13,169 nucleotides of DNA, from positions 1 to 13,169 of IMG/VR virus record IMGVR_UViG_2721755711_000005. One strand, written 5' to 3'. Positions 1 through 13,169 of this stretch are shown one piece after another (the stretch's first letter is position 1; every line of letters starts with the position of its first letter). The notes beneath the pieces are model-generated. The model was given only the letters and a program-made list of their open reading frames with translations, did no database searches and was not told the origin of the DNA. Source of the DNA: a virus (lineage: Duplodnaviria > Heunggongvirae > Uroviricota > Caudoviricetes). A program made the position numbers and the translations under genes.

Positions 1-1242
1 ATGGCACGAAAAACCACCCCACTAACCATTACGGAGATCAAAAACGCACGGCCAGGGGAAAAGGAATACACCCTGCAGGATGGCGGAGGATTATTTCTTC
101 TGGTGAAGCCCTCCGGATCAAAAATCTGGCGTTTTACGTACTACCGTCCGGCAGATAAAAAACGGACTATTATCAGCCTTGGATCGCTGAATGATGTTTC
201 CCTGTCTGATGCCAGAGAGCGACGGAATGAATACAGGTCACTCATAGCAAAGGGAACTGACCCACAGGACCACGAACGCCGGAAACGTGAAGCAGAGAGC
301 CGGAAAAAGGGCAACACGTTCGAAAAAGTTGCCTCGGACTGGTACGAGATGAAAAAAGGCCAGAATCTGGCTTACAACACGATTAAGGATATCTGGCGAT
401 CCATGGAAAAATACGTATTCCCGTACATCGGAAACACGCCAATAGATACCCTCACCGCTCGCCGCTTTGTTGAGATACTCACCCCCATTAAGGCGCGTGG
501 CAACCTGGAAACCCTGAAACGCGTTTTACAGCGCATCAATGAGGTGATGGATTTTGCTGCCAACAGTGGTCTGATTGACATCAACACCGCCGCGAACGTC
601 CGCAAGGCATTCCCCTCACCCACCAAAAAGCACATGCCAACCATCCGACCGGAACAGCTACCACAGCTAATGCACGATTTATCGGTCGCCAGCATAGAAC
701 GGCAAACCAGATTGCTGATTGAGTGGCAGCTGCTGACCGTTGCACGCCCCGCCGAAGCAGCCGCCGCACGCTGGGAAGAAATAAACCTCGATGCCGAAAC
801 CTGGACGATTCCAGCCGGACGCATGAAGATGCGCCGTGACCATGTGATCCCCCTTTGCGGTCAGGCTATGGCTGTACTGGAAACCATGAAGCCAATCAGC
901 GCACACAGGGAACACGTTTTTCCCAGCCTTAAAAATCCGATGCTACCAATGAGCAGCCAGACCGCTAACGCTGCATTACGCCGGATGGGATACGCTGGTG
1001 TGCTGGTGTCTCACGGATTACGCGCCATATTCAGTACAGCAGCGAACGAGGAAGGATTCGAGCCGGACGTAATCGAGGCCGCACTCGCACACGTGGACAC
1101 GAACGAGGTAAGGCGAGCATATAACCGAAGTAACTACCTGGAAAAGCGCGTGGTGCTTATGCGCTGGTGGGGTGAATTTGTGGAAGCCGCAGCAACCGGA
1201 GTGACCATAGCCAGTGGTAAAAGGGGTATCCGTGCAGTGTAA
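1..1242 (+). CDS. int: Tyrosine-type site-specific integrase, P4/CP4-57 family, with N-terminal arm-binding domain
   Basis: 413-aa ORF. N-terminus (LTITEIKNARPGEKEYTLQDGGGLFLLVKPSGSKIWRFTYY) matches the DUF4102-type arm-binding domain of P4-like integrases. C-terminus carries catalytic-region motifs (HVIPLCGQA, SHGLRAIFST, RAYNRSNYLEKR with the candidate Tyr nucleophile). Window starts exactly at the ATG. Confidence 0.93.
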   Translation: MARKTTPLTITEIKNARPGEKEYTLQDGGGLFLLVKPSGSKIWRFTYYRPADKKRTIISLGSLNDVSLSDARERRNEYRSLIAKGTDPQDHERRKREAESRKKGNTFEKVASDWYEMKKGQNLAYNTIKDIWRSMEKYVFPYIGNTPIDTLTARRFVEILTPIKARGNLETLKRVLQRINEVMDFAANSGLIDINTAANVRKAFPSPTKKHMPTIRPEQLPQLMHDLSVASIERQTRLLIEWQLLTVARPAEAAAARWEEINLDAETWTIPAGRMKMRRDHVIPLCGQAMAVLETMKPISAHREHVFPSLKNPMLPMSSQTANAALRRMGYAGVLVSHGLRAIFSTAANEEGFEPDVIEAALAHVDTNEVRRAYNRSNYLEKRVVLMRWWGEFVEAAATGVTIASGKRGIRAV

Positions 1243-1343
1243 CTGTACAAAAAACCAGTACAACCAGTGCAAACCATGCTAAACCATCGTATAATCACCA
1301 CATACAGAGAGACCCGACTCTTGAAATTCAAGGAGTTATCCGA

Positions 1344-1586
1344 GTGTTTTTCAATGAAAAGGTATCCCCTGCCTATGGTGAAGGCCTTCAGTTGGCCTTA
1401 ATGGCAAATCGTGAATTCTGGTCAACGTACGATCCGGAAGACAAATCAACAGCCCCCACAAAACACGAGGTAGTCAGTTTTTTGCGCTCGCGTGGCGCAT
1501 CGAAAAATCTGGCTGAAAGCATCGACAAGGTGCTGAGACCCACCAGCCTTAAATGCGGTGGGCGACCTAAGAAGTGGAAGCGGTAA
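1344..1586 (+). CDS. Hypothetical small protein (80 aa), GTG start
   Basis: ORF with AGGAG at 1332-1336, 7 nt before the GTG, followed by a rho-independent terminator. No family recognised. Confidence 0.4.
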   Translation: MFFNEKVSPAYGEGLQLALMANREFWSTYDPEDKSTAPTKHEVVSFLRSRGASKNLAESIDKVLRPTSLKCGGRPKKWKR

Positions 1587-1591
1587 TCACA

Positions 1592-1621
1592 ATAGCGGCC
1601 CCTTGCGGTCGCTATTTTTTT
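1592..1621 (+). terminator. Rho-independent terminator
   Basis: Hairpin ATAGCGGCC / GGTCGCTAT with a 6-nt loop, followed by a run of 7 T. Confidence 0.6.
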
Positions 1622-1655
1622 GCAAAAAGAAAGCGTAATCAATGAGATAAAAAAC

Positions 1656-1692
1656 AGTGGGTACCGTTTTAAAACGGTGGGTACTGTTTTTC
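1656..1692. promoter_or_regulatory. Putative operator upstream of alpA: direct repeats flanking a 16-bp palindrome
   Basis: Two copies of GTGGGTAC(C/T)GTTTT at 1657-1670 and 1677-1690. A perfect palindrome ACCGTTTTAAAACGGT at 1663-1678 lies between them, about 65 bp upstream of the alpA start. Confidence 0.4.
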
Positions 1693-1755
1693 CCGCCCTG
1701 CCCTGTTTTACCGTATTTATCACCGGAATACGCCGGATTAATGAGGTAAAACACG

Positions 1756-1962
1756 ATGGAAGTAATCAGAAAAATTCTTACCCGTCAGGAAGTAAAAAAT
1801 ATTCTGCGCATCAAGGCAGACAGTTCGCTACAGGACATGATCAACGCCGGAAAATTCCCGAAAGGCTTCAAAATCGGTCTGCGTCGTGTTGGCTGGTATG
1901 AAGATGAGGTGCTGGCCTGGCTGAAAGAACGCGAGGAAGAAGCGCGCGGAACGGCTGCGTAA
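1756..1962 (+). CDS. alpA: AlpA-family (Phage_AlpA) transcriptional regulator / excisionase-like HTH protein
   Basis: 68 aa. ILTRQEVKNILRI...FPKGFKIGLRRVGWYEDEVLAWLKER matches the AlpA signature (helix-turn-helix followed by VGW-E-E---WL--R). GAGGT RBS 8 nt upstream. Position just after int is typical. Confidence 0.85.
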   Translation: MEVIRKILTRQEVKNILRIKADSSLQDMINAGKFPKGFKIGLRRVGWYEDEVLAWLKEREEEARGTAA

Positions 1963-2238
1963 TGGTGTGAGGCGTAACACAATGAACATAACAAAAAGCG
2001 CCCCATTGCCGGAGCGCCCTTGCGAACAATTAGCCTGCCGCACCAAAAATAAATATGTGCAGGGGAATTATATCAACCGTGTGGCGAAGCGCCACAATTG
2101 CCGGATAACGGGCAAAACAAAGGCGACCGCAAAGGGTCGCCAGTGGATATTACGGCAAATCAAACTTGAACGCATCGCCAACAATGCCACATTTGCGGCT
2201 GGTGAGCAATGTGATCAGCGTGCTGGTTTGCTGGTGGG

Positions 2239-2436
2239 CTATTCCTGCTCTTTAGCATCGCCATGCTGCGATGTTTTCCAGGTATGCGATCCCATTTTTG
2301 TGCGCCTGTACTCTTTAAGGAACTTCTCAAGGACAAACGCACATGGCGCGAATCTTTCCTGTTCATGTTCGCTTACCGCGTTTTTGCGTTGTTTTTTCCT
2401 GGATGAAGATAATTTCTTTAATGATTTGTCAGTCAT
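2239..2436 (-). CDS. Hypothetical small basic protein (65 aa), paralogous 3' end to neighbouring small gene
   Basis: Lys/Arg-rich ORF ending ...DAKEQE. Its last codons and stop share DNA identity with the 3' end of gene 2494-2673 (TCCTGCTCTTT core). Confidence 0.4.
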   Translation of the reverse strand: MTDKSLKKLSSSRKKQRKNAVSEHEQERFAPCAFVLEKFLKEYRRTKMGSHTWKTSQHGDAKEQE

Positions 2437-2493
2437 CGTAGATACCTGTAACCCTGTGCGCCACAGTTCACCGCACCACGGCGCTGGTGATGG

Positions 2494-2673
2494 TTACTCC
2501 TGCTCTTTGGCCTTGCGCCGCTGGCGGTACTCAACTTCTCGCTTTAATGCTGCTGTTACAAACTGCCCTGTACTTTCACCAGGCATTTTTACCGCCTCAA
2601 CATTGTTCATAACTTCATGCGGAACCCTTGCCGCAACTGTTTGTGATTTTGCGTTTACTGCTTTTGTCGCCAT
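2494..2673 (-). CDS. Small putative DNA-binding protein (59 aa from ATG 2673; possibly ribbon-helix-helix-like), candidate repressor
   Basis: ORF track starts at GTG 2682, but the in-frame ATG at 2673 has a GAGGGG RBS 8-9 nt upstream. Sequence MATKAVNAKSQTVAARVPHEVMNNVEAV...QFVTAALKREVEYRQRRKAKEQE has a beta-helix-helix-like pattern. Divergent from the operator at 2724-2775. Confidence 0.5.
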   Translation of the reverse strand: MATKAVNAKSQTVAARVPHEVMNNVEAVKMPGESTGQFVTAALKREVEYRQRRKAKEQE

Positions 2674-2723
2674 GTTGTGCACCCCTCACAAAAAACAAAT
2701 GCAGTATGCAGGAAAAAAAATAA

Positions 2724-2775
2724 GTGTTCAACACTTGACGTGTTTAACACCTAGATTTAAATTGGTGTTCAACAC
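2724..2775. promoter_or_regulatory. Operator: three 11-bp palindromes GTGTT(C/T)AACAC in a divergent promoter region
   Basis: GTGTTCAACAC at 2724-2734, GTGTTTAACAC at 2740-2750, GTGTTCAACAC at 2765-2775. TTGACG at 2735-2740 (-35-like) lies between sites 1 and 2; TAAATT at 2758-2763 is a possible -10 after a 17-bp spacer. Confidence 0.6.
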
Positions 2776-2872
2776 CTTATTAATGCAAGGTGCAGAAACG
2801 ACGAAACCCGGCAGTGCGCGAACACTAACCGGGCTTCTAACCACCAACGATAGCAAGATTATCGAGGTAGCT

Positions 2873-3235
2873 ATGAGAAATCATAACCAAACTAAACCCG
2901 AATTTATATACACCTTTACGGCGCTACACCGAGATCGCATGGCTGACGGCGCAACTACGGTACATGTAGCCGCTGACACGCTGGTTGATGCCAGCAGGAT
3001 GGTTAAAGAGATGGGCTACGTTGCGGCGTTCTGGAAAGGGCGCGAAGAAAACACGCTGTTTATTCAGAAATGCGAAAACAATTTTATCTGGCGTTTTATC
3101 GCCCTGAGCACGGCGCAACCGCGCATGATTACCATTGAGGCCACCAGCGAACAGGAAGCACGCCAGCAATCCCCGGCTGGCTGCGTGATGGTATTCGCCG
3201 CCCGTATTCGTCAGGGGGTGCACCATGTGCAATAA
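2873..3235 (+). CDS. Hypothetical protein (120 aa), first gene of plus-strand replication operon
   Basis: In-frame ATG at 2873 within the long ORF 1967-3235, with GAGGT 4 nt upstream. The upstream part of that ORF overlaps the two minus-strand genes and the operator, so only this 3' part is called. Confidence 0.45.
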   Translation: MRNHNQTKPEFIYTFTALHRDRMADGATTVHVAADTLVDASRMVKEMGYVAAFWKGREENTLFIQKCENNFIWRFIALSTAQPRMITIEATSEQEARQQSPAGCVMVFAARIRQGVHHVQ

Positions 3236-3455
3236 AAACACGCCGGACGCAGCAGGCGAAGCATTGAAAGTACTGATACATGCGCTTGTGGATATAAATT
3301 GCATGGTAGAGATCATGGAGAAGAAATCACAGTCGGAGTACGACAAAAGAAAATTTAAAACAATAAAAATAATTACCAAAAACTCACTGACAAAAGCTAC
3401 AGACATCCTCAATGAGGACACTAAAAGAATCAGGGAGAAACTGTGTGATGCATAA
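3225..3455 (+). CDS. Hypothetical small protein (76 aa), largely AT-rich
   Basis: ATG overlaps the stop of the upstream gene; AGGGGGTG RBS. Lys-rich product; the gene runs into a strongly AT-rich patch. Confidence 0.4.
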   Translation: MCNKNTPDAAGEALKVLIHALVDINCMVEIMEKKSQSEYDKRKFKTIKIITKNSLTKATDILNEDTKRIREKLCDA

Positions 3456-3675
3456 AATACCTTTTGATGTTCTTATTCATTCTGAAAACGCATTAATCCG
3501 CGCAAAGGAAATGGAGGCATTATTACTTAAGTTAATGGAAGTGCCGGAAAATGGCGATGAATCATATCCCATGATGTTTTCTGCCGTGCACACATTATTA
3601 ACGCCAGTAATTAACGAATTAAATACGGTGATGGCAATTCACGAGAATAATAAAGCGCATCACACCGGAGAATAA
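3448..3675 (+). CDS. Hypothetical small protein (75 aa from ATG 3448), AT-rich
   Basis: ORF track starts at 3412, but ATG 3448 has an AGGGAGAA RBS about 8 nt upstream and overlaps the stop of the preceding ORF by 8 nt (translational coupling). No family recognised. Confidence 0.45.
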   Translation: MHKIPFDVLIHSENALIRAKEMEALLLKLMEVPENGDESYPMMFSAVHTLLTPVINELNTVMAIHENNKAHHTGE

Positions 3676-3680
3676 AAACC

Positions 3681-3980
3681 ATGAAACAGAAAATTTCTGA
3701 CTTTACTGCCAGCGGCCTCCCTCGGTCTGAAATCCGCCCCGGCGATATTTTCCGGGATAACTACGGCGGCACGGTAACGATTAAACACGTGGCGGGACGG
3801 TGCGTTACTTACCGCCGTGATGGGTACGGCTATGACTGCGTGATGCCTGCTTATCAGTTCCGGCGTGATTTTTCCCTGGTACAGGCAGCGCAACGCAGTA
3901 AGCCCACCAGCAGGGAAAAAGCACGGGAAAATATTAAGAAAATAAAAAGCATGCTCAGCGCATCCAGAGGTAAAAAATGA
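3681..3980 (+). CDS. Hypothetical protein (99 aa)
   Basis: GGAG RBS upstream. Stop overlaps the start of the helicase gene (3977) by 4 nt. Confidence 0.5.
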   Translation: MKQKISDFTASGLPRSEIRPGDIFRDNYGGTVTIKHVAGRCVTYRRDGYGYDCVMPAYQFRRDFSLVQAAQRSKPTSREKARENIKKIKSMLSASRGKK

Positions 3981-5383
3981 AACTGGCACCGAACGTAAAA
4001 CTGTTACCGAAAGATAAACACACTGAGGCGGTTATTTTTGCGGGTGATAATGCTCACTCCTTTGCAGAACATTACATGATTGCACAGGCCAAAAAAGCAG
4101 GCGATCCCATCCCTCCGGTTTACCTGGGCCGTTATCAGTTAAGCGAACTGGACAACTTACAGATTGTTGATGAAGGACGATACAGAGCAAAGGTCATACG
4201 CGCCGGAAACCTGGACGATATGCAGATGCTGACCATTGCCACAAAACTGGCGATCGCCGGAGTCCAGGAGGCGCGGCTACTTTCTGAAAATTTCGAACTG
4301 CTGGAGAACTGGAGCGACCAACTACCACGACTACGGGAAACATGGGAGAGAGGGGAAAGCCTGGTCATGAATGGCAGAAAGCGAAAAATCACGCTTCCCA
4401 TCTCATGGGGTTCTGAGGGATTCGACGCGCAGCAAAGCTACGTAATTAAGGGGCTTATTCCGGCTGAATCATTATGCAGCACCTACGGCGCGAGTGGTTC
4501 CTATAAATCGTTCCTCGCCATTTCCTGGTCGTGCCATGTTGCCACAGGTATGGCATGGGGAGGCCGCAGGGTAAGTAAGGGCGCGGTTATCTATATCGCT
4601 GGTGAAGGCAGCATGGGCGTAAAACGCCGCGTAAAGGCGTGGGAGATAACCCACGACAAGGTGGTTACAGATTTGTGCATCATTAACGCGCCGGTATTCC
4701 CTGCATCGCCTGACTATGTGGAGCAGGTTATCAGGACTGCCGGACTTGTTAAGAGCAGAACGGGCGAAAATGTGCGGCTGATTGTGATCGACACGCTGGC
4801 CCGTTGCTTTGGTGGGAATGATGAAAATGATTCCCGTGATATGGGCGCATTTATCCAGGGGTGTGACGCGATAAAGCAGGCCACAGGGGCCACGGTGCTG
4901 GTGGTTCACCATTCCGGCAAGGATGAAACAAAGGGGGCGCGTGGTTCCAGCGCATTCCGTGCCGCGCTTGATGCAGAGTACCGAATCAGCCGGGAAAATT
5001 CAGACGTTACAGCACTGGTGGCGGCGTGTACGAAGATGAAGGACGCAGAGGAGCCAAAAGAAAGCGCATACGACCTTAAAAGCGTGGAGGTGTTCACCGA
5101 TACAGATGGCGAAGAGATTGTGTCTATGGTGGTGATTGACGTTCCCCGCGCCCCTGCTGAACTGGAACGCATCGAGGAGGCCGGGAACAAGACGGAGAAT
5201 CACGCCGCATTATGGCAGTGCATCAGAACGCGGACGGCACACGGGGAATCATGCACTATTGCCCTGCTGCGCGACGATATGAAAAAGCTGGGGTATGAGA
5301 TGAAGCACTTCCGGCGCTGGCTGTACAAGCTGGAAAAAGACGGCGTGATCACTATCGACGGCAATGACGTGCATCCACTGTAA
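3977..5383 (+). CDS. Replication protein with RecA-fold ATPase domain (AAA_25 / RepA-like helicase)
   Basis: 468 aa. Walker A YGASGSYKS, Walker B RLIVIDTLARCF, and a VLVVHHSGKDETKGARGSSA sensor region typical of RepA/DnaB-like AAA_25 ATPases. Immediately followed by an iteron array. Confidence 0.8.
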   Translation: MKLAPNVKLLPKDKHTEAVIFAGDNAHSFAEHYMIAQAKKAGDPIPPVYLGRYQLSELDNLQIVDEGRYRAKVIRAGNLDDMQMLTIATKLAIAGVQEARLLSENFELLENWSDQLPRLRETWERGESLVMNGRKRKITLPISWGSEGFDAQQSYVIKGLIPAESLCSTYGASGSYKSFLAISWSCHVATGMAWGGRRVSKGAVIYIAGEGSMGVKRRVKAWEITHDKVVTDLCIINAPVFPASPDYVEQVIRTAGLVKSRTGENVRLIVIDTLARCFGGNDENDSRDMGAFIQGCDAIKQATGATVLVVHHSGKDETKGARGSSAFRAALDAEYRISRENSDVTALVAACTKMKDAEEPKESAYDLKSVEVFTDTDGEEIVSMVVIDVPRAPAELERIEEAGNKTENHAALWQCIRTRTAHGESCTIALLRDDMKKLGYEMKHFRRWLYKLEKDGVITIDGNDVHPL

Positions 5384-5585
5384 AAGTGGGGGATAAAAGT
5401 GGGGATAGCGGGGAATTTAACAAAATTGAAACGCTATTCCCCACTTTCTGGCCTGTATACATCCAAAAAAGTGGGGAGTAAAAAATACAATGAAAAACAA
5501 AGAATTAGACTTACCCAAAAAACGAGGTGGGAAGCAAGTGGGAAATTTTAAAAGTGGGGAACAAAAGTGGGGGTAGTGGGGAATG
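5384..5585. repeat. Iteron array, putative satellite replication origin
   Basis: About 8 direct copies of AAAGTGGGGA-like units (5384-5395, 5395-5407, 5465-5478, 5524-5534, 5535-5545, 5549-5560, 5563-5573, 5574-5585) plus one inverted copy CCCCACTTT at 5439-5447, with AT-rich spacers, directly downstream of the helicase gene. Confidence 0.8.
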
Positions 5586-6356
5586 AATAAAGAAAATATG
5601 ACCTGTCAGGGGATGAGCTACAAAGAACGCGAAGCACTCAAGGCCTTTGCGGGGCAGTGTGAGAAGCACGGAGATATACAGAGCCTAACCAGAACGCTGG
5701 TCATGATTGCGCACTGGATGCGACAGAGCAAGGCGGTGAGTTTTACGGAATACGCCAGCCAGTGGACAGAGGCACAGCGTGAACGGAGCGACGGCAATCA
5801 CTCAACACCCGAAATGGCGAAGCAATGGCCTTTCAGTGGTAAACGGTGCATCAATCCGGGCGGATCTGATTATTACCCGTGCGGAACAGAAAAAGAGCGA
5901 CAGAATGATGAGGTGGAAATTAAACACGCAGTAACGGTAATTCTTGCCGCTTACCCATTTTTTAACCGCGATGGACTTGAACTGTACAGCCGTGATAAGG
6001 CATGGGTGCACCCACTTGATTATGCGCCCTTCATGGCGGAGGCGATGAGCTGTTTACGCTGGATAAGGGAGAACAACCTTACCGACTGTAAGATTGCATC
6101 ATTCCCTGGAAAAAATCCGACATCCTACGGCCTGAAACATTGTGTTGAGCGTGTGAATCAGAGAAGAGCTAAGGGCGACGGGCAACCAACAGAGCCGACA
6201 TACATCACAAACGGCGCATTAATCGCCGCAATGGTCGCATCGGGTTATCGGGTGAAGCGAACGGGAAGAATGAACTGCCTGTTTAATATCTCACACAAAC
6301 AGCTTAAGCGCGCACTGATGACAGGACCAGTAAAAACCGGAGAACAGACAGCATGA
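5583..6356 (+). CDS. Hypothetical protein (257 aa); start codon uncertain
   Basis: Long ORF whose stop overlaps the SSB start. Weak RBS at the first ATG; alternative in-frame starts at Met6 and Met11. No family recognised. Confidence 0.55.
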   Translation: MNKENMTCQGMSYKEREALKAFAGQCEKHGDIQSLTRTLVMIAHWMRQSKAVSFTEYASQWTEAQRERSDGNHSTPEMAKQWPFSGKRCINPGGSDYYPCGTEKERQNDEVEIKHAVTVILAAYPFFNRDGLELYSRDKAWVHPLDYAPFMAEAMSCLRWIRENNLTDCKIASFPGKNPTSYGLKHCVERVNQRRAKGDGQPTEPTYITNGALIAAMVASGYRVKRTGRMNCLFNISHKQLKRALMTGPVKTGEQTA

Positions 6357-6775
6357 CAGCACAGATAGCGGCTTACGGGCGGCTGGTGGCTGACCCGCAG
6401 TTAAAGACCACCAGCAAAGGGACACAAATGGCGATGGCGAGTATGGCGGTTCCCCTGCCGTGCAGCCAGGCAGATGACGGAACGGCGACGATGTGGTTAT
6501 CCGTCCTGGCGTTTGGCAGACAGGCCGACGCACTGGCCAGACACCACAAAGGCGAACTGGTGAGCGTGGCGGGTAACATGCAGGTAAGCCAGTGGACAGG
6601 CCAGAACGGCGAAACGCGGCAGGGCTGGCAGGTTATCGCAGACAGCGTAATCAGTGCGCGAACGGCGCGACCGGGCGGCAAAAAAGGTCAACAGGGCCAG
6701 GCTACTGACGCGCTGAACAGGGCAAAACAACAGGCGGGTAATGATGATCCGTACGGGGACAACATACCGTTTTAA
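6353..6775 (+). CDS. ssb: Single-stranded DNA-binding protein (short SSB)
   Basis: 140 aa. N-terminal OB-fold-like region (AAYGRLVADPQLKTT...), Gly/Gln-rich linker and an acidic C-terminal tail DDPYGDNIPF resembling the canonical SSB tip DDDIPF. Confidence 0.8.
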   Translation: MTAQIAAYGRLVADPQLKTTSKGTQMAMASMAVPLPCSQADDGTATMWLSVLAFGRQADALARHHKGELVSVAGNMQVSQWTGQNGETRQGWQVIADSVISARTARPGGKKGQQGQATDALNRAKQQAGNDDPYGDNIPF

Positions 6776-6811
6776 TTCACAACAGCGAACAGAGTTATTA
6801 CAGGGGAAAGC

Positions 6812-7336
6812 ATGACAAAGCTGACCATTAACCGAAAACCGAAAGGCATTTACGGCACGCTGCAGAAAACGACGCAGGCGATACAGCAGCAGGATAAAAC
6901 CACATCGGCGCATAAAGTGATACCCGGCAATCAGAACGCACAGCAGAAGCCCACAGGGGCGACACCGTGGCGGCATATGACCAAACGCCAGCGCAAAAAC
7001 CGCAGACGCGTTAATCGCCTCACTGAGATGTGGCCTGACTTATTCAGCCGGGAAGCGCCAAAACCGCTGAAGGTGGGGATATTCGACGACCTTATGCAGG
7101 ATATCGCCGTCAGGGGGCTGGCATTCGGGCCGGGGGCATTACGTGCGACGCTGGCATCTTATACGCAGTCTCCGCGCTATTACCGCGCCTTAATGGCTGG
7201 TGGGGTACGCTACGACCTGAAAGGCCAGCCATATGGGGAGGTTACACCACAGGAACAGCAGGAGGCAGAAACGCGGCTGATGGCACTGAATGAGAAGCGC
7301 AAACGCCGGGCAGCAAAGGAGAAGACGGGCACGTGA
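6812..7336 (+). CDS. ProQ/FinO-domain RNA-binding protein
   Basis: 174 aa. PLKVGIFDDLMQDIAVRG...LRATLASYTQSPRYYRALMAGGVRYDLKGQPYGEV aligns with the ProQ N-terminal FinO-like domain (PLKIGIFQDL...[35 protein letters not shown]). Basic C-terminal tail. Confidence 0.8.
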   Translation: MTKLTINRKPKGIYGTLQKTTQAIQQQDKTTSAHKVIPGNQNAQQKPTGATPWRHMTKRQRKNRRRVNRLTEMWPDLFSREAPKPLKVGIFDDLMQDIAVRGLAFGPGALRATLASYTQSPRYYRALMAGGVRYDLKGQPYGEVTPQEQQEAETRLMALNEKRKRRAAKEKTGT

Positions 7337-7608
7337 TTCACGACAGCAAAGCGGAAGAACTGGAGGCTAAAGGGCTGTACCGAAGAGCGGCGGCGCGGTG
7401 GGCTGAGGTTATGCAACTGGTGAACACCGATAAGGAGCGCGAACAGGCGGCAAAGCGTCGCGCGGAATGTATCCGTAAGGCAGCACGCTCACCCGTTATG
7501 GCGGATAACTTCGGGGCGCTGAAAGAGGCTGTAAACCGCACTCATGCGGTGATGGGGATGGAAGACGCGGGTAAATCCGTCTGGCGGAACTACCCGAAGC
7601 AGCCCTGA
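7333..7608 (+). CDS. PerC/Pch-family transcriptional activator-like protein, GTG start
   Basis: 91 aa. KAEELEAKGLYRRAAARWAEVM...EREQAAKRRAECIRKA...AVNRTHAVMG matches my recollection of the PerC/Pch signature (LE-GL-RRAA-W--VM...RR--C...NRT). AAGGAG 11 nt upstream; overlaps the stop of the ProQ-like gene. Confidence 0.65.
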   Translation: MIHDSKAEELEAKGLYRRAAARWAEVMQLVNTDKEREQAAKRRAECIRKAARSPVMADNFGALKEAVNRTHAVMGMEDAGKSVWRNYPKQP

Positions 7609-7705
7609 CAGTAACCAGTGATGCCGGATATTATCCTGAAAAATGGCCATCACTCCCGTGGGCGGATAACATAAAATCCCGCATATGCGCACATACACAG
7701 ACGAA

Positions 7706-7728
7706 GCCGGAACACTCCGGCTTTTTTT
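7706..7728 (+). terminator. Rho-independent terminator ending the replication operon
   Basis: GCCGGA-ACAC-TCCGGC hairpin followed by a run of 7 T. Confidence 0.75.
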
Positions 7729-7805
7729 ACGGGTCCTCCTGATGGGGTACCCTTACCGCGGGGCGACGGACGCGCGGAAAACGGCTAATTTTTGAATTTT
7801 TATCG
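7722..7805 (+). repeat. cos-like element A (cosQ-like plus degenerate cosN-like), paired in inverted orientation with 12515-12595
   Basis: TTTACGGGTCCTCC...CGCGGGGCGACGGACGCGCGGAAAACGGCTAATTTTTGAATTTTT resembles the bona fide cos at 8548-8640. Its reverse complement recurs at about 90% identity at 12515-12595. Confidence 0.6.
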
Positions 7806-8074
7806 GTCATCACCACCAGCGCAATTTATTGATAATGAAGGTTAAAAAAATTCCTGGTGTCGAAAACGCCTGTTTTTTGTTCACCACTGAATCATGCCGC
7901 ATCACGATAACCCACAAGGCTGGTGGTGATGCGTTATGCTCCCTACGTTGCCATCCTCCTGACCTCATGGCATTATCCGGCGTGAACGAGCGGTTATTCT
8001 CCGTACTCTTAATCGTTGTTCATGGTTATTTGCTTTGTGGTAGCTTACATTTCCTGATGGTTATTATCCTTCCA

Positions 8075-8098
8075 CCCCGTAATCACGGGGTTTTTTTT
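8075..8098 (+). terminator. Rho-independent terminator in the non-coding region upstream of cos
   Basis: CCCCG-TAATCA-CGGGG hairpin followed by a run of 8 T. Lies inside the compositionally implausible ORF 7829-8167. Confidence 0.55.
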
Positions 8099-8547
8099 GT
8101 CTGCGATTTGCCGTTCTCCGTTGCGCTGGTGGTAACGTCACGACATGTCACCATCACGTCACGCTGATGGCGAAAGTCAGGGTTAACCAGTACCGGAACG
8201 GGTAGCCCGATGTACTGTTACCGTTCTGCTGGCTGGTGGAGTAATTGATAACGGTTATCATCAACGGGAGGGGTGGATCAAATCCCTGTAGTCCTGGCTG
8301 TCAGGGACCGCCGCCCAACCCTTCTTCACATCGCCGCAGGTTCGAAAACTTTTTTTTGGGAAGGTGCGCACAGACTTGATAGATAAAACCTATCAGACAA
8401 AACCACGCCAACCCCGCGCCATTGCTGGCATCGTTAAAAAAACTCACTCCACCAGCAGGCTAAAAAACCGTGATTTTTCCGGTTTTATGGGCTGAAAAGG
8501 GGCTCCCTAAAAAACACCTCTTACACTGCCGGACAGGAGCGGTGGCT

Positions 8548-8770
8548 TTTCACGGGTCCTTTCCGGGGATCTGAAACACCACGGGGCGGCAGACGCGCAG
8601 ATTTTCACTATTTATGAAAATTTTTCAGGGAAAAAGCATGTCGGTACTTCTTGCATGTAACATTATGTTTTTATTGCAACTAACTATCATAAACATACGA
8701 CACCATAACGCCGGAAAATCCCGTTTTTCAGGCGTTTCATGTCGGAGGTGGTTTTTGATGAGGATTTGAT
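8548..8770 (+). other. cos: Lambda-type cos site: cosQ-like (8548-8583), cosN (about 8584-8595), cosB (8596-8770)
   Basis: TTTCACGGGTCCTTTCCGGGGATCTGAAACACCACG|GGGCGGCAGACG|CGCAGATTTTCACTATTTATGAAAATTTTTC closely parallels the phage lambda cos junction as I recall it (...TTTACGGGTCCTTTCCGGTGATCCGACAGGTTACG|GGGCGGCGACCT|CGCGGGTTTTCGCTATTTATGAAAATTTTCC), and sits immediately upstream of a Nu1-like gene exactly as in lambda. Confidence 0.85.
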
Positions 8771-8772
8771 AA

Positions 8773-9357
8773 ATGAATGTTAACAAAAAGAGACTGGCGG
8801 AGATTTTCGGTGTTGATCCGCGCACAATTGAGCGCTGGCAGATGCAAGGGCTTCCCCATGTATCTGGTGGCGGAAAAGGTGTGGAGGTGACTTTCGACTC
8901 TACACAGGTGATCGAATGGTATGTACAGAGGGAGAAGGAGATCGAAAACGAAAAACTCCGCAGGGAGCTTGATGATTTACGTGCTGCTGGTGAATCAGAT
9001 TTACAGCCAGGCACAACAGAGTACGAACGCTACCGTCTCACCAAAGCACAGGCGGACGGGCAGGAACTGAAGAACGCCAGAGAGACAGGGGAAGTTATAG
9101 ATACTGAGTTCGTACTCTGTGCGCTTCGTGGACTGGCGAGTCAGATTTCTTCGATCATGGATAGTTTGCCGCTCACAATGCAAAGGCAGTTCCCCGGGAT
9201 GACTCCGGCAATGCTCGATGGCCTGAGGAAGGAAACAGCACGAGCCTGTAATGCGTGCGCTAAAACTGCCGATAACCTACCCCGCATTCTGGAAGACTAT
9301 CTGATGGAAACAACCGGAAACGTGCCGGAGAAGTTACGGCAACAGAAAGGTGAGTGA
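8773..9357 (+). CDS. Nu1-like small terminase subunit homologue (satellite packaging-redirection protein, Rpp-like)
   Basis: 194 aa, collinear with lambda Nu1 along its whole length: [28 protein letters not shown]...[12 protein letters not shown]...[11 protein letters not shown]...[28 protein letters not shown] versus Nu1 MEVNKKQLADIFGASIRTIQNWQEQGMP...GGGKGNEVLYDS...[11 protein letters not shown]...[28 protein letters not shown]. No large terminase gene follows. Confidence 0.9.
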
Positions 9358-9383
9358 CAACCGCGCAATTATTGAACAAAACT

Positions 9384-9442
9384 AAGAAAGGATCTGATAA
9401 CGTTATTTTTGGCCCAAAATGACCACTGTCAGATCCTTTCTT
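9384..9442 (+). terminator. Perfect 14-bp inverted repeat hairpin after terS (possible terminator or protein-binding site)
   Basis: AAGAAAGGATCTGA (9384-9397) and TCAGATCCTTTCTT (9429-9442) with a 31-nt loop, followed by TTTTTCTG. The loop is unusually large for an intrinsic terminator. Confidence 0.4.
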
Positions 9443-9494
9443 TTTCTGATGATTTTACGATTAAACAATGAGTTACAGAGAAGAAGAACGGATC

Positions 9495-9586
9495 TGACTT
9501 TTCCCGAAAAATTTTCATAAACAGTTAAGAATTGCGCGTATCCGTACCCCCGGCGCTCAAGATTCTGGAAAGGACCCGTGACACCT
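9495..9586 (-). repeat. cos-like element D, inverted copy of the cos region, downstream of terS
   Basis: Reverse complement reads GTGTCACGGGTCCTTTCCAGAATCTTGAGCGCCGGGGGTACGGATACGCGCAATTCTTAACTGTTTATGAAAATTTTTCGGGAAAAG, which parallels cos 8548-8632 in its cosQ core, its GC-rich centre and its TTTATGAAAATTTTTC block (roughly 75% by eye). Confidence 0.6.
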
Positions 9587-9590
9587 GACC

Positions 9591-9614
9591 AACAAAAAAG
9601 CCCCCGAAGGGGGC
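9591..9614 (-). terminator. Rho-independent terminator of the minus-strand toxin-immunity operon
   Basis: GCCCCC-GAA-GGGGGC hairpin. On the minus strand it is followed by TTTTTTGTT, immediately 3' of the immunity gene stop (9619). Confidence 0.75.
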
Positions 9615-9618
9615 TAAA

Positions 9619-9867
9619 TTACGCATCTTTAAAACTGGGTTTGCCATTAGCTAAACGCCAGGTTTTAACTTCTTGTACGATGGCTTCCGGGCTATCGTCT
9701 TTTCCGTTCTCTGGATAAAAAATTAGATCAGAGCCTGATGGATGTTCAGAGAGGCGCCTGAATTCTCTGACTAACTGCTCGCTTTCTTTTTCTGTTCCTT
9801 CTGCATTACATATTTTTCGAACAAGATCTAAGAATTCATTTTCAGTATAGTCGTTTATTGTTTTCAC
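9619..9867 (-). CDS. Colicin/pyocin DNase immunity protein (Im7/Im9 family)
   Basis: 82 aa, GTG start. [82 protein letters not shown] aligns along its full length with Im9 (...[79 protein letters not shown]). One nt separates it from the toxin stop. Confidence 0.92.
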
Positions 9868-9868
9868 G

Positions 9869-11560
9869 TTATTTTCCCCTGTGAATTTCTATATGCCGCT
9901 TTGGTGTTGTGATACCCATATTATCAACGTTATAAACTTCGCCCCCCTCACTTATAGGTTTAATATGGTGTATCTCGTAACGTTCCCTCCCACCAACTCG
10001 ATCCACTTCCCTTGTGAATGGTGAACGTCCTTTGCGAATGTTCGTGAGGTTGTGTGCTCTGAACTGTCTTGACAAATCAGCATCGTTTGCCACTTCTGCC
10101 CAAAATGCCTCCCTGAATCGATCAAAATTCGCAAATGTTCGCCCACGCATCCGCTCCGCAATCTGGCTGGGTACTGGTGCACCATTTCCCTTATCGGCAT
10201 CCACCAGCCACGCCCCGCTAATTTTTTGTCCTTTCCCTGTTACCTGCCCGGCGTTATTCCTGATGTAAATATAAATCGGCGGTATATCCGGGAATGGCAG
10301 GATCAGAATGTAATCCGCAAAATCCTTTTCTTCCGGGGCCGGGCTGGTTGTGGCGTGTAATCCCGTGTCATCCGGTAACGGGTCCACCATCACCGGATTC
10401 GGCAGCACTGGCGGGTACTGATTTCCCGTGTGGTACGGTACATCAATCCCCGGATTATCCGGCGTCCAGATGAGTGTGATACGCGGGTCTTCCTCCGTGG
10501 TGAACGTGTACGCCTTTCGTCTGTCGTCCCACTCCATCCGGCGCACGCGCACCCTGTCCTGTCCCGGTGGCGTGTGCCAGCCATGCGGCACGGGGTTCCC
10601 CCGGCTGTTCGTCTCCCAAGTAAAGCGAACACGGGTAGGCACTTCCCTGACCTGTTCGGCCCTCATACGGTCGATAAAATCCTGCTCCCCGTCATTCAGC
10701 CGGCCGGGCATCATCCCTATCAGAAACGCCGCCAGTGGCAGCCCCGCAACCCCGGTCGCGGTTTCGCCCACGACGGCCCACGTTCCCCGGATGGCAAAAT
10801 TTCCCGCCACCGGACGCAGAACGCTCGCCCCGGCAATTGCCGCTCTGGCCCGTTGTGCGCGCTCCGCTTCCTCAACCGCACGCTGATAATCCATTTCCTC
10901 GTGATGGCCGTTCCACCATTTCCACAGTGCACTGCGTTTCTTCGGCTTCGGAATATCCTCCGGCGCAATCAGTTTTTTCTTTTTGACCGCCTGTGCACGC
11001 TGCGGGGCTTCCGTGTCTGTCACCGGGTCAGTCTGCGGAACGGCCTGATAAATCCCCATCGGTGCAAAGTTGGTATGCGGCTCCCGCTGGTCGCCCGCGT
11101 CGTTGCATCCCGCACCGCGCAGACAGGATTTTGCAAACACCCGGTTACGTTCCCGTTCTTCCTCCCGGCGTTTTTCTTCAGCTTCCCGTTCTGCCCTGCG
11201 TTGTGCTATCAGTTCCGCCTGTTTTTTCTGTGCAATTTCTGCCGGCGACGGCCCCGCCCCCATCCACTGACCGAGCGGGGCAATAATCCGGTTTGAACCT
11301 TCAGGGCAGCCACAGTGAACAACACAGCCATCAACGGCAATGGGAATATCTATCACCTTAAAACGGGCTTCTCCTTCTGCCACCATGCCGGGCTTTCCGC
11401 ACGCCGGGCAGGGAGTGGTTTTGTCTCCCTTACGAATAAGACCGTTACCACAGACGTTGTAGTTAGGGACAGGAAGGGAAGTAATCAGCCATGCGCCGGT
11501 GGTGGTTTTGTCACAGGAAAGCGCCATTCCCCTGCCGTGTATATCCGGTCTGTATGTCAT
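9869..11560 (-). CDS. Polymorphic toxin: Cys-rich N-terminal domain, charged linker, central domain of unknown function, C-terminal colicin E9-type HNH DNase
   Basis: 563 aa. The C-terminal ~130 aa ([49 protein letters not shown]...[55 protein letters not shown]) align with the colicin E9 DNase domain, including the HNH motif. N-terminus has multiple Cys ([16 protein letters not shown]). GGAG RBS 8 nt upstream; ATGA overlap with the upstream gene. Confidence 0.9.
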
Positions 11561-12045
11561 GGCTTACACTCCGGCACCAGAAAATCCGCTGGCATACTTT
11601 CGCCTTCACGACAACAAAGTAACGTTATTCGCTGCGGCGTACTGATAATCTCATCCCCGTTATCCAGTTGGCTGCCAACCAGAGCATACCCTTTTCCGTG
11701 ACAACTGAACGCACTGCCGGAACCGCTGATAATACGGGCCGTAGTGCCGTCCTGATACGTCACCTCATCCCCGACCATCGCCATTTCTGCCATCTCTCCG
11801 GTGCTGTCAGCGACTTCGCAGCCGGAACTGGCGGAAGACACCACCCCGCCATTACGGGTAAGGCTACCGGTAGTGGCATGTCGCCAGATAGCCACAATCG
11901 GATGTTGACGGCAAAATTCCTCCTGCTCCCTGATTATCGCCAGCGCATCATCGGACATATCAGCAAGCGCTTCCTCTGTGAAAGGGGATTTATCCAGTTC
12001 TGCCAGTACATCGGCGGTCAGTTCGTTGGTATATTGCTTCATCAT
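11557..12045 (-). CDS. Hypothetical protein (162 aa) co-transcribed with the toxin: acidic helical N-terminus, Gly/Ser-rich C-terminal half, Cys cluster; candidate PAAR-like partner, adaptor or chaperone
   Basis: First gene of the minus-strand operon, translationally coupled to the toxin by an ATGA overlap. C-terminal half AMVGDEVTYQDGTTARIISGSGSAFSCHGKGYALVGSQLDNGDEII is loosely reminiscent of PAAR-type repeats; ends with LLCCREGES...PECKP. Confidence 0.6.
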   Translation of the reverse strand: MMKQYTNELTADVLAELDKSPFTEEALADMSDDALAIIREQEEFCRQHPIVAIWRHATTGSLTRNGGVVSSASSGCEVADSTGEMAEMAMVGDEVTYQDGTTARIISGSGSAFSCHGKGYALVGSQLDNGDEIISTPQRITLLCCREGESMPADFLVPECKP

Positions 12046-12514
12046 GTTTCTGTTTTTCCTGTGGTTAACAATCGACCAGAATCATAATGAAAGGGAATGC
12101 AAAAAAATTGATGGATATCAAAATGAAAAATAAAATCATCCCGGTAAAACAGGATATCTACCCCACCAGCATCCCTGGATTTTCAGATAGTTGCTTTTAG
12201 CCTCTGAACAACATCTGCTGGTGGCTGATAATTACAATAATTCCTGCCCCCTGGCGTTTCTGAGCATGTTTACCGCGAATTTTGCGCAAAACACCTTAAC
12301 AATTCTTAAATTTTAAAAACACTTCAGTGATAAGCATCACCGCTCCCGCTCACATTTGACACAGGCAACTCCATCTGGCAGGTGAAAATCAAATTTATTT
12401 ATATATTTCAATTGATTGTAAACTGGTCTAATGACAGGGGAGAAAAAAGACTGTACAGGTGAAAACAGAAATAATTCTTAATTATCAATGAATTATCACA
12501 CATGCTGCCGCCGC

Positions 12515-12595
12515 CATGAAAATGCAAAAACTAGCCGTTTTCTGCGCATCCGTCGCCCCGCGGTAAGGGGCACCCCACCGGGAGGACCCACGACG
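12515..12595 (-). repeat. cos-like element C, inverted partner of element A (7722-7805)
   Basis: Reverse complement CGTGGGTCCTCCCGGTGGGGTGCCCCTTACCGCGGGGCGACGGATGCGCAGAAAACGGCTAGTTTTTGCATTTTC matches 7726-7805 at about 90% by eye. Confidence 0.6.
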
Positions 12596-12884
12596 ATCAG
12601 GGAGTTTTATCAACGTCGTGTGTTATGCCGGATTAACTGCGTACGTAATACGTGCACATCCCGGACAGGAGCAGCCAGAATCAGCGCCGCTGACGTTGTT
12701 TTGTGGTTATCCCCCTGTCATGAATCATCGCAATGGTTTTATGTGTTCTGCGTTGCGCTGGTGGGTTATTCCACCATTGGTGGGAAACATGGCACCACAT
12801 CCACCAGCTTAAACGCGCTTCACCTTCCCGGCATCAGTCGCCACAATTACGGCATTGCTTTCCATCACCACGGAGGCCATGACC

Positions 12885-13169
12885 ATGACCGAAGCCGAAA
12901 TGCTCAAAATGATTCGCCGTGCTGCCGGAATCAGCCAGGCAGCAGGCAAACAGGAGGCCACGCAACCGGACAGCGTGATAGCCGAAAATTACGCGCGTGT
13001 GGTGGCTGATGTGATGCGCCGTGACGGTATCGAGCTTAACGGCGTGGATATGCGCGATATACGAACCAGAGTTCTCGAGTTGCTGGCATGTCGTCGCCGT
13101 TCTCAGCAACGGAGGGAGAGCGCGAAAAATACTTACCAGTGGAAGAAGCCGGAGCGGTTACGGCGGTAG
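12885..13169 (+). CDS. Hypothetical protein, 3'-truncated by the window end
   Basis: The ORF runs to the window edge. GGAGG at 12872-12876 is 8 nt upstream of the ATG at 12885 (the ORF track starts at 12855 with no RBS). No family recognised. Confidence 0.4.
   Translation: MTEAEMLKMIRRAAGISQAAGKQEATQPDSVIAENYARVVADVMRRDGIELNGVDMRDIRTRVLELLACRRRSQQRRESAKNTYQWKKPERLRR

Follow-up and report, generated by a model that had tools for sequence, protein, structure and literature searches.

In a 13,169-nt stretch of Caudoviricetes DNA (IMG/VR record IMGVR_UViG_2721755711_000005, positions 1 to 13,169; hereafter the window), the region between a small minus-strand gene and the divergent replication operon probably works as a two-layer lock. 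A 59-aa repressor of the ribbon-helix-helix (RHH) type and a SymR-like antisense RNA would together hold the operon, which is headed by a gene for an Icd-like protein, in the off state. Judged by its genes, the window as a whole is a phage satellite of the phage-inducible chromosomal island (PICI) type, and of the Gram-negative kind, with an integrase gene (int), alpA, a replication operon and a gene for a Nu1-type small terminase; the gene set and its order (int, alpA, replication module, packaging-redirection genes) are those of PICIs, and lysis and tail genes are absent. The first-pass annotation had proposed an autoregulated repressor/operator switch at this place but did not mention the antisense RNA, although it lies inside the coordinates then given. 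The elements of the control region and of the operon are the following.

2494-2673, minus strand: 59-aa YlcI/YnfO-family RHH protein, the proposed repressor, start codon ATG at 2673-2671
2703-2731, minus strand: proposed leftward promoter of the repressor gene, read from the sequence as TTGAAC (2731-2726), a 17-nt spacer and CATACT (2708-2703)
2724-2734: putative operator O1, GTGTTCAACAC, adjoining the rightward -35 and including the leftward -35-like TTGAAC
2735-2763, plus strand: rightward promoter TTGACG-17-TAAATT, -35 at 2735-2740 and -10 at 2758-2763
2740-2750: putative operator O2, GTGTTTAACAC, which fills the spacer of the rightward promoter
2765-2775: putative operator O3, GTGTTCAACAC, which begins 2 nt past the -10 and lies over the predicted rightward start point
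About 2793-2873, minus strand: predicted SymR-like cis-antisense RNA (~80 nt, two hairpins) with complementarity to the Icd-like gene's leader and Shine-Dalgarno sequence
2880-2885, minus strand: TATGAT, the -10 box of the predicted antisense promoter, inside codons 3-5 of the Icd-like open reading frame (ORF)
2873-3235, plus strand: Icd-like protein (NCBIfam NF033153, 75 bits), first cistron of the rightward operon
3225-3455, 3412-3675, 3681-3980 (DUF4222) and 3977-5383 (AAA_25, helicase-type), plus strand: the next ORFs, overlapping or abutting

The control region has three copies of the pattern GTGTT(C/T)AACAC, and the rest of the 13.2-kb window has none (6 strand-matches, the expectation being 0.39; as many were reached in 0 of 200 dinucleotide-preserving shuffles). 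These near-identical 11-bp palindromes, which the first-pass annotation had placed on a promoter, do flank and fill TTGACG-17-TAAATT, the only sigma-70-like promoter found in a scan of positions 2100-3000, and O1 and O3 each become a perfect 13-bp palindrome once one flanking base per side is added.

The comparison covered 28 related loci (given below by their L numbers) from E. coli, Edwardsiella, Pectobacterium, Kosakonia, Superficieibacter, Limnobaculum, Leclercia, Serratia and Xenorhabdus, together with a metagenome-assembled genome and a metagenome contig. In these loci the positions of the sites are kept, in the more general form GTG-N5-CAC: the outer frame is constant, the inner 5 bp vary among loci, and the perfect palindrome GTGTTYAACAC is confined to the specificity class of the window. 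The earlier reading as a repressor/operator switch therefore stands in so far as the sites behave, on comparative grounds, as operators (fixed positions at the promoters, concerted change, and co-variation with a beta-strand of the protein), with GTG-N5-CAC and not the palindrome as their defining form.

Wherever the Icd-like operon lies opposite the repressor gene, the intergenic layout is identical. The -35 is located 65 nt from the repressor start codon, one 11-bp site begins at the final base of the -35, the next follows ~25 bp downstream, and a third is found either just upstream of the -35, as in the window's type, or beside the -10 of the leftward promoter. TTGAC(G/A) is kept at the rightward -35 position in the related loci. 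A site at the O1 position was also identified in L001, L003, L007 and L036, and nearly all related loci have a class-specific GTG-N5-CAC site at the O2 position. The O3 position is conserved as well; its site is inverted in L008, L031, L032 and L035 (four loci, three classes), as expected of a symmetric binder. In L014 (Xenorhabdus anantnagensis), upstream of position 3998, a 25-bp deletion has removed O3 and left the rest of the module intact, a natural operator mutant.

All copies of the site inside one locus change alike, and the inner 5 bp co-vary with residues 10-14 of the N-terminal strand of the RHH protein. Approximately ten classes are represented in the 28 loci; seven are tabulated here by strand and operator, and further strand/operator classes exist.

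KSQT[VLI]AAR: GTGTTYAACAC
KSKKLEARV: GTGGCTGACAC
KSQSVTARI: GTGTAAGACAC
KSKRFDVRV: GTGTC[CG]GACAC
KSQALKARV: GTGGGCCACAC
KSQKLASRV: GTGGGTAACAC
KSQLFTVRV: GTGTGTTTCAC

One class recurs in E. coli and Xenorhabdus, and closely related E. coli islands bear different classes. The protein of L034 is a chimera: its N-terminal half is of the TAAGA class, and its C-terminal half matches the window's protein residue for residue; since its sites are of the TAAGA class, specificity was assigned to the N-terminal half. A longer repressor variant of 101 aa, with an insert of ~40 residues ahead of the basic tail, is encoded in E. coli ATCC 25922 (L038 3100-3405); its strand reads KSQSLTARI and its sites, GTGTAAGACAA, ATGTAAGCCAC and an inverted GTGTAAGTAAC, are near-variants of the TAAGA class. 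Recognition of the GTG-N5-CAC sites by the RHH protein appears strongly supported, with the support being comparative and not from a binding assay.

The 59-aa minus-strand gene of the first-pass annotation is real, its coordinates being corrected to 2494-2673. Its product belongs to the YlcI/YnfO family (NCBIfam NF041551, 59.7 bits against a cutoff of 30, residues 8-49) and, by fold, to the RHH (Arc/MetJ/CopG) superfamily. The RHH fold suspected earlier for this protein is supported: it shows the beta-alpha-alpha arrangement, with the two helices joined by a G-x-S/T/N turn, its best structural match is a CopG-family protein, and the family alignment exhibits an invariant frame of N6, S9, R15 and H18 together with a G-E-S turn. 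No published function of the YlcI/YnfO family was found in the literature searched. The family founder, ylcI of E. coli K-12 (L037 4252-4446), lies beside cos in prophage DLP12, with GTG-N5-CAC sites absent from its neighborhood; an operator rule for the whole family was therefore rejected and limited to the satellite branch, and the lambdoid branch probably has another target.

It is unlikely that the GTG-N5-CAC sites are bound by a factor such as AlpA, the 65-aa protein encoded downstream of the repressor gene or a host regulator, with the RHH protein acting elsewhere. AlpA is the experimentally shown activator of E. coli PICI genes. Furthermore, the repressor gene lies next to the sites and is inherited with them; any linked gene could show the same co-variation, which cannot by itself prove the identity of the binder. 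However, AlpA was rejected as the specificity partner, being uncoupled from operator class: the window and L001 share the same RHH protein and operators with AlpA proteins only 37% identical, whereas the AlpA proteins of the window and L035 are 71% identical and the operators different. The sites persist outside Escherichia, where the 65-aa ORF is absent; a host factor would need no set of about ten island-specific site variants; and the L034 chimera links the site class to the N-terminal half of the RHH protein. Concerted site change and the chimera would thus, indirectly, favor the RHH protein as the binder.

The 65-aa ORF itself and its surroundings comprise three features.

2239-2436, minus strand: conserved 65-aa ORF downstream of the repressor gene (phrog_21027, E 4e-48, full length)
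2230-2268: copy of the repressor-gene 3' end (2483-2523) that runs across the stop codon of the 65-aa ORF
2122-2141, minus strand: intrinsic-terminator-like hairpin closing the leftward unit, GGCGACCCTTTGCGGTCGCC then TTTGTTTT

That the RHH gene and this ORF form a type II toxin-antitoxin pair, with the palindromes serving mainly their own operon, is about as improbable as another binder. Of the three sites, two belong by position to the opposite, rightward promoter, one within its spacer and one at its start point, and most genera lack the partner ORF yet have kept the RHH gene, the sites and the RNA. The homologues of the 65-aa ORF are confined to E. coli and E. albertii (44 of 44), and loci in other genera are without it. 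It has no match to a toxin family in Pfam, NCBIfam or PHROGs, and a Pfam search of both small proteins gave nothing meaningful. Members of the ORF's family are mosaic and end in one of two alternative C-terminal tails. Both minus-strand small genes end in AKEQE, and the local duplication at the DNA level that was noted earlier is borne out: the alignment of 2230-2268 with 2483-2523 scores 20 against a null of 9.3 +/- 1.8, and 0 of 2000 shuffles reach 20. The copied stretch comprises the last codons of the 65-aa ORF and ~12 nt past its stop, and a related ORF in L002 is without the duplicated tail. The duplication looks like a recombination scar of minor importance, with no sign of function seen.

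The second layer of the proposed lock is the RNA. Nothing in the region is better conserved than the 100-nt leader from the rightward promoter to ATG 2873, which also exhibits compensatory changes. In an alignment of 18 loci it forms two hairpins, with a consensus fold of -32.3 kcal/mol on the minus strand and -10.5 kcal/mol on the plus strand. For 24 pairs over these loci, 98.1% of the cells are paired and 13 pairs have changes on both sides; none of 500 shuffles reached any of five measures, and slid controls fall to 31-48% paired. The minus-strand structure has 63 G-U cells and 8 broken cells, as compared with 1 and 70, respectively, in the mirrored plus-strand structure. On these predicted structures, the G-U content is the decisive test of strand and favors a minus-strand RNA. 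In the window, the fold is -36.8 kcal/mol (z -6.1) on the minus strand versus -20.4 kcal/mol (z -2.3) in the sense orientation.

The candidate RNA takes in the Icd-like gene's Shine-Dalgarno GAGG (2864-2867) and stops close to the rightward start point. A TAnnnT hexamer is located 7-8 nt upstream of its 5' end, with the T, A and final T invariant in the 18 loci, and the amino acids encoded at this invariant box (codons 3-5 of the Icd-like ORF) vary. The covariance model built from the island RNAs (model R1) detected a single copy per locus in 25 loci, in every case antisense to the Icd-like gene. The window also encodes a ProQ/FinO-family protein (6812-7336, plus strand; Pfam ProQ, 85 bits), as does the relative L002. 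FinO chaperones the two-hairpin antisense RNA FinP, and the island protein is therefore a candidate partner of the SymR-like RNA.

By model comparison, the island RNA is related to SymR, below threshold and with another target, and the detection is reciprocal. Rfam gave no match above threshold; a permissive scan found SymR (RF01809) on the minus strand from 2872 to 2800 (33.3 bits, E 3e-4), and among the relatives SymR scores 35.9 bits in L008 and 45.6 bits in L010. Model R1, which was built without symR sequences, recovers the annotated symR of K-12 with the correct strand and coordinates (33.9 bits, E about 4.5e-7). In comparative terms the island RNA is cis-antisense to the leader and start of its target, has its promoter embedded in the target ORF and folds into two hairpins with covariation support, as SymR does; its target, however, is the Icd-like protein (NF033153) and not the AbrB-fold symE product. 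The -10 of K-12 symR, TAGAAT, lies 7 nt before AGTCAT, the same geometry as in the island RNA. SymR is known to block symE translation by covering the ribosome-binding site (RBS), from a promoter embedded in the ORF (PMC1891008, PMC4147584), and its -10 TAGAAT was destroyed by silent mutations in the study of Kawano et al. (PMC1891008). In the literature searched, no SymR relatives outside symE loci were found, and nothing relevant on antisense RNA in PICIs or on SymR-like RNAs.

That the leader structure instead functions within the sense mRNA (attenuator, riboswitch-like element or processed RNA of the P1 C4/P4 CI type), with no antisense RNA being made, is very unlikely. The icd gene of P1 is under the control of a same-strand C4 RNA, and any hairpin is present on both strands. 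Prompted by the Icd-like gene, an RNA of this type in the leader was considered and rejected, as Rfam C4 gave no match even at E up to 10. The plus-strand mirror has the many broken cells and few G-U cells given above, and its consensus fold is the weaker one; moreover, the invariant TAnnnT box stands at the right distance on the minus strand, and the reciprocal SymR similarity is on that strand too. The weakest alternative, that the palindromes are chance or structural repeats such as a hairpin terminator with no protein partner, can draw on the flagging of O3 as a weak terminator-like hairpin, but is highly improbable given the shuffles, the keeping of positions across about ten genera with the sequence replaced in concert, and the non-palindromic inner sequences of other classes, so that hairpin formation is not the conserved property.

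For the two-layer lock, the following course of events is proposed. RHH dimers would occupy O1-O3 at the rightward promoter and exclude RNA polymerase. The protein may in this way be the master repressor of the island, which a helper phage would have to overcome, as the first-pass annotation suggested. O1 overlaps the -35 of the leftward promoter, and TTGAAC-17-CATACT may therefore be the repressor's own promoter, placed by O1 under autoregulation; its -10, CATACT, aligns with an ACA(G/A/T)TAT motif (TATAnT on the minus strand) that is conserved in all related loci. A constitutive antisense RNA of ~80 nt, beginning beside the start codon and transcribed from the promoter in the first Icd-like codons, would pair with the leader and RBS of any leaked mRNA, as SymR does at symE, and thereby block translation of the first cistron. 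As the downstream cistrons overlap, the block would probably spread to the replication cistrons. The lock might be overridden by AlpA-dependent read-through from alpA across the convergent repressor unit, or, in some relatives, through antirepressor-like genes beside alpA. Such AntA/BRO-type genes lie between alpA and the repressor gene, co-oriented with alpA, in L002 (4437-5811) and L032 (1816-2625), and could be a link from AlpA to inactivation of the repressor.

Several observations weigh against this interpretation. No Pfam RHH family matches the 59-aa protein, a profile search of Protein Data Bank (PDB) sequences with it returned nothing at E up to 10, and its Foldseek search against the PDB was not significant. 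The leftward promoter is a weak match (8 of 12), under the scan threshold, and the window is without the site beside the repressor's -10 that most relatives carry; autoregulation would therefore depend on O1 alone. For the antisense promoter a strong -35 was sought and rejected, as only a weakly conserved T(G/A)TAAA is seen. The SymR matches are under the Rfam gathering score (33 versus 61 bits for the window), and for this reason the island RNAs go unlabelled by annotation pipelines. Published work on PICIs accounts for induction by AlpA and invokes no repressor (PMC6092414); in these data AlpA, turned on by the helper phage, heads the induction cascade (PMC6092414). At this stage, every functional element of the proposal for the islands is inferred from sequence, namely DNA binding with repression and autoregulation, RNA expression with its translational block, and the helper-phage link.

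The arrangement resembles several known systems. The immI region of phage P22 combines the RHH repressors Mnt and Arc, the divergent promoters Pmnt and Pant, and the sar antisense RNA. It shares with the island small RHH repressors on operators that overlap divergent promoters and a short cis-antisense RNA that blocks downstream translation. There is, however, no detectable sequence relation; the island has a single divergent RHH gene, its GTG-N5-CAC sites are 11 bp long and three or four in number, and its RNA, related to SymR and not to sar, would target an Icd-like first cistron and not an antirepressor. In plasmid pMV158, the RHH repressor CopG and the antisense RNAII acting on repB control copy number, and in both cases a replication operon is, or would be, under an RHH transcriptional repressor and a translation-blocking antisense RNA; a CopG-family protein is also the best structural match of the 59-aa protein. 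Unlike the divergent RHH gene of the island, copG lies within the operon that it represses, and the two show no sequence relation. The C4 RNA of P1 and the CI RNA of P4 are same-strand RNAs that arise by processing of the operon transcript. The likeness to P1 immI (C4, icd, ant) and P4 CI is that an Icd-type first gene is restrained by a small RNA at the RBS, whereas the island RNA is a predicted cis-antisense transcript without a match to Rfam C4.

A parallel to the RNA is the type I toxin-antitoxin locus symE/symR of E. coli, with an antisense RNA of ~77-80 nt and two hairpins over the leader and RBS, a promoter in the first codons of the target, a -10 box 7 nt before an AG(C/T)CAT start, a loop GUGUUGGCGCAC that is identical in some relatives, a repressor-controlled sense promoter just upstream and reciprocal detection by covariance models. 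The island differs in having an Icd-like target in place of the AbrB-fold SymE, RHH operators in place of a LexA box, a score below the Rfam gathering threshold and a mobile satellite context in place of the hsd/mcr region. The Stl-Str switch of SaPIs and Gram-positive PICIs occupies a like place: its divergent regulatory genes separate the int side from the replication operon, and the repressor is the int-side partner (PMC6092414). Stl proteins are, however, larger helix-turn-helix repressors inactivated by binding of helper-phage proteins, whereas the island protein is of the RHH type; the two are comparable only in position and operator layout, and Gram-negative PICIs are reported to be induced through AlpA. 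No description of a repressor of Gram-negative PICIs, or of the present arrangement in PICIs, was found in the literature searched.

The Icd-like protein is 120 aa long in the window, as compared with 66-67 aa in E. coli relatives, and the ~50 additional residues follow the conserved N-terminal codons and precede the Icd-like domain (residues 71-114). Its annotation is conflicting, with related PHROGs families labelled 'transcriptional repressor' and the NCBI family labelled 'cell division inhibitor'. An open frame of 422 codons (1967-3235, plus strand) spans the whole control region antisense to both small genes, and only its last 120 codons, from ATG 2873, match a conserved gene. NCBI annotates a partial 'Icd-like' pseudogene at the equivalent place in ATCC 25922 (L038 2735-3214).

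Elsewhere in the island the main genes are the following.

1-1242: P4-type integrase (int)
1756-1962: alpA (AlpA)
3681-5383: DUF4222/AAA_25 replication region
8773-9357: Nu1-type small terminase (terS)

In addition to the ProQ/FinO protein, the window codes for a single-stranded DNA-binding protein (SSB) and a PerC-family regulator (7333-7608, plus strand, 124 bits); a PICI-encoded PerC-like protein has been reported to repress expression of the LEE (PMC11773190). Primases of the DUF927 or D5_N type are present in relatives. L001, a close relative of the window that carries the control module, has capsid and decoration genes, and capsid genes were likewise reported for EcCICFT073 (PMC6092414). 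The int-alpA RNA motif of Rfam (RF02996) was identified above threshold between int and alpA in L004 (6850-6918) and L009 (6963-7035), and was not found in the window. The minus-strand region 9619-12045 holds the cargo of the island: a colicin-type immunity gene (9619-9867), a PAAR, S-type pyocin and colicin/pyocin DNase toxin gene (9869-11560) and a second PAAR protein (11557-12045). This cargo looks like an effector set of the type VI secretion system (T6SS) type carried on a phage satellite.

If the two-layer lock is correct, a repressor, its operators and a second, RNA-based layer would be named for satellites present in about a quarter of complete E. coli genomes (the control region is matched in 1337 of 5426), the YlcI/YnfO family, part of the y-ome, would gain its first function, some ten small, mutually orthogonal repressor/operator pairs of natural origin would become available, and SymR would be tied to control cassettes of mobile elements. 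More speculatively, the RHH protein and the SymR-like RNA may be the missing maintenance (immunity) system of Gram-negative PICI-type satellites, in which orthogonal classes prevent cross-regulation among co-resident satellites and AlpA induction overrides the lock, and the chromosomal symE/symR of E. coli may be a domesticated relative of the leader/antisense cassette with LexA replacing the RHH protein; this wider proposal is tentative and considerably less likely than the lock itself. In either case, the elements described here provide testable candidates for how such satellites stay silent.

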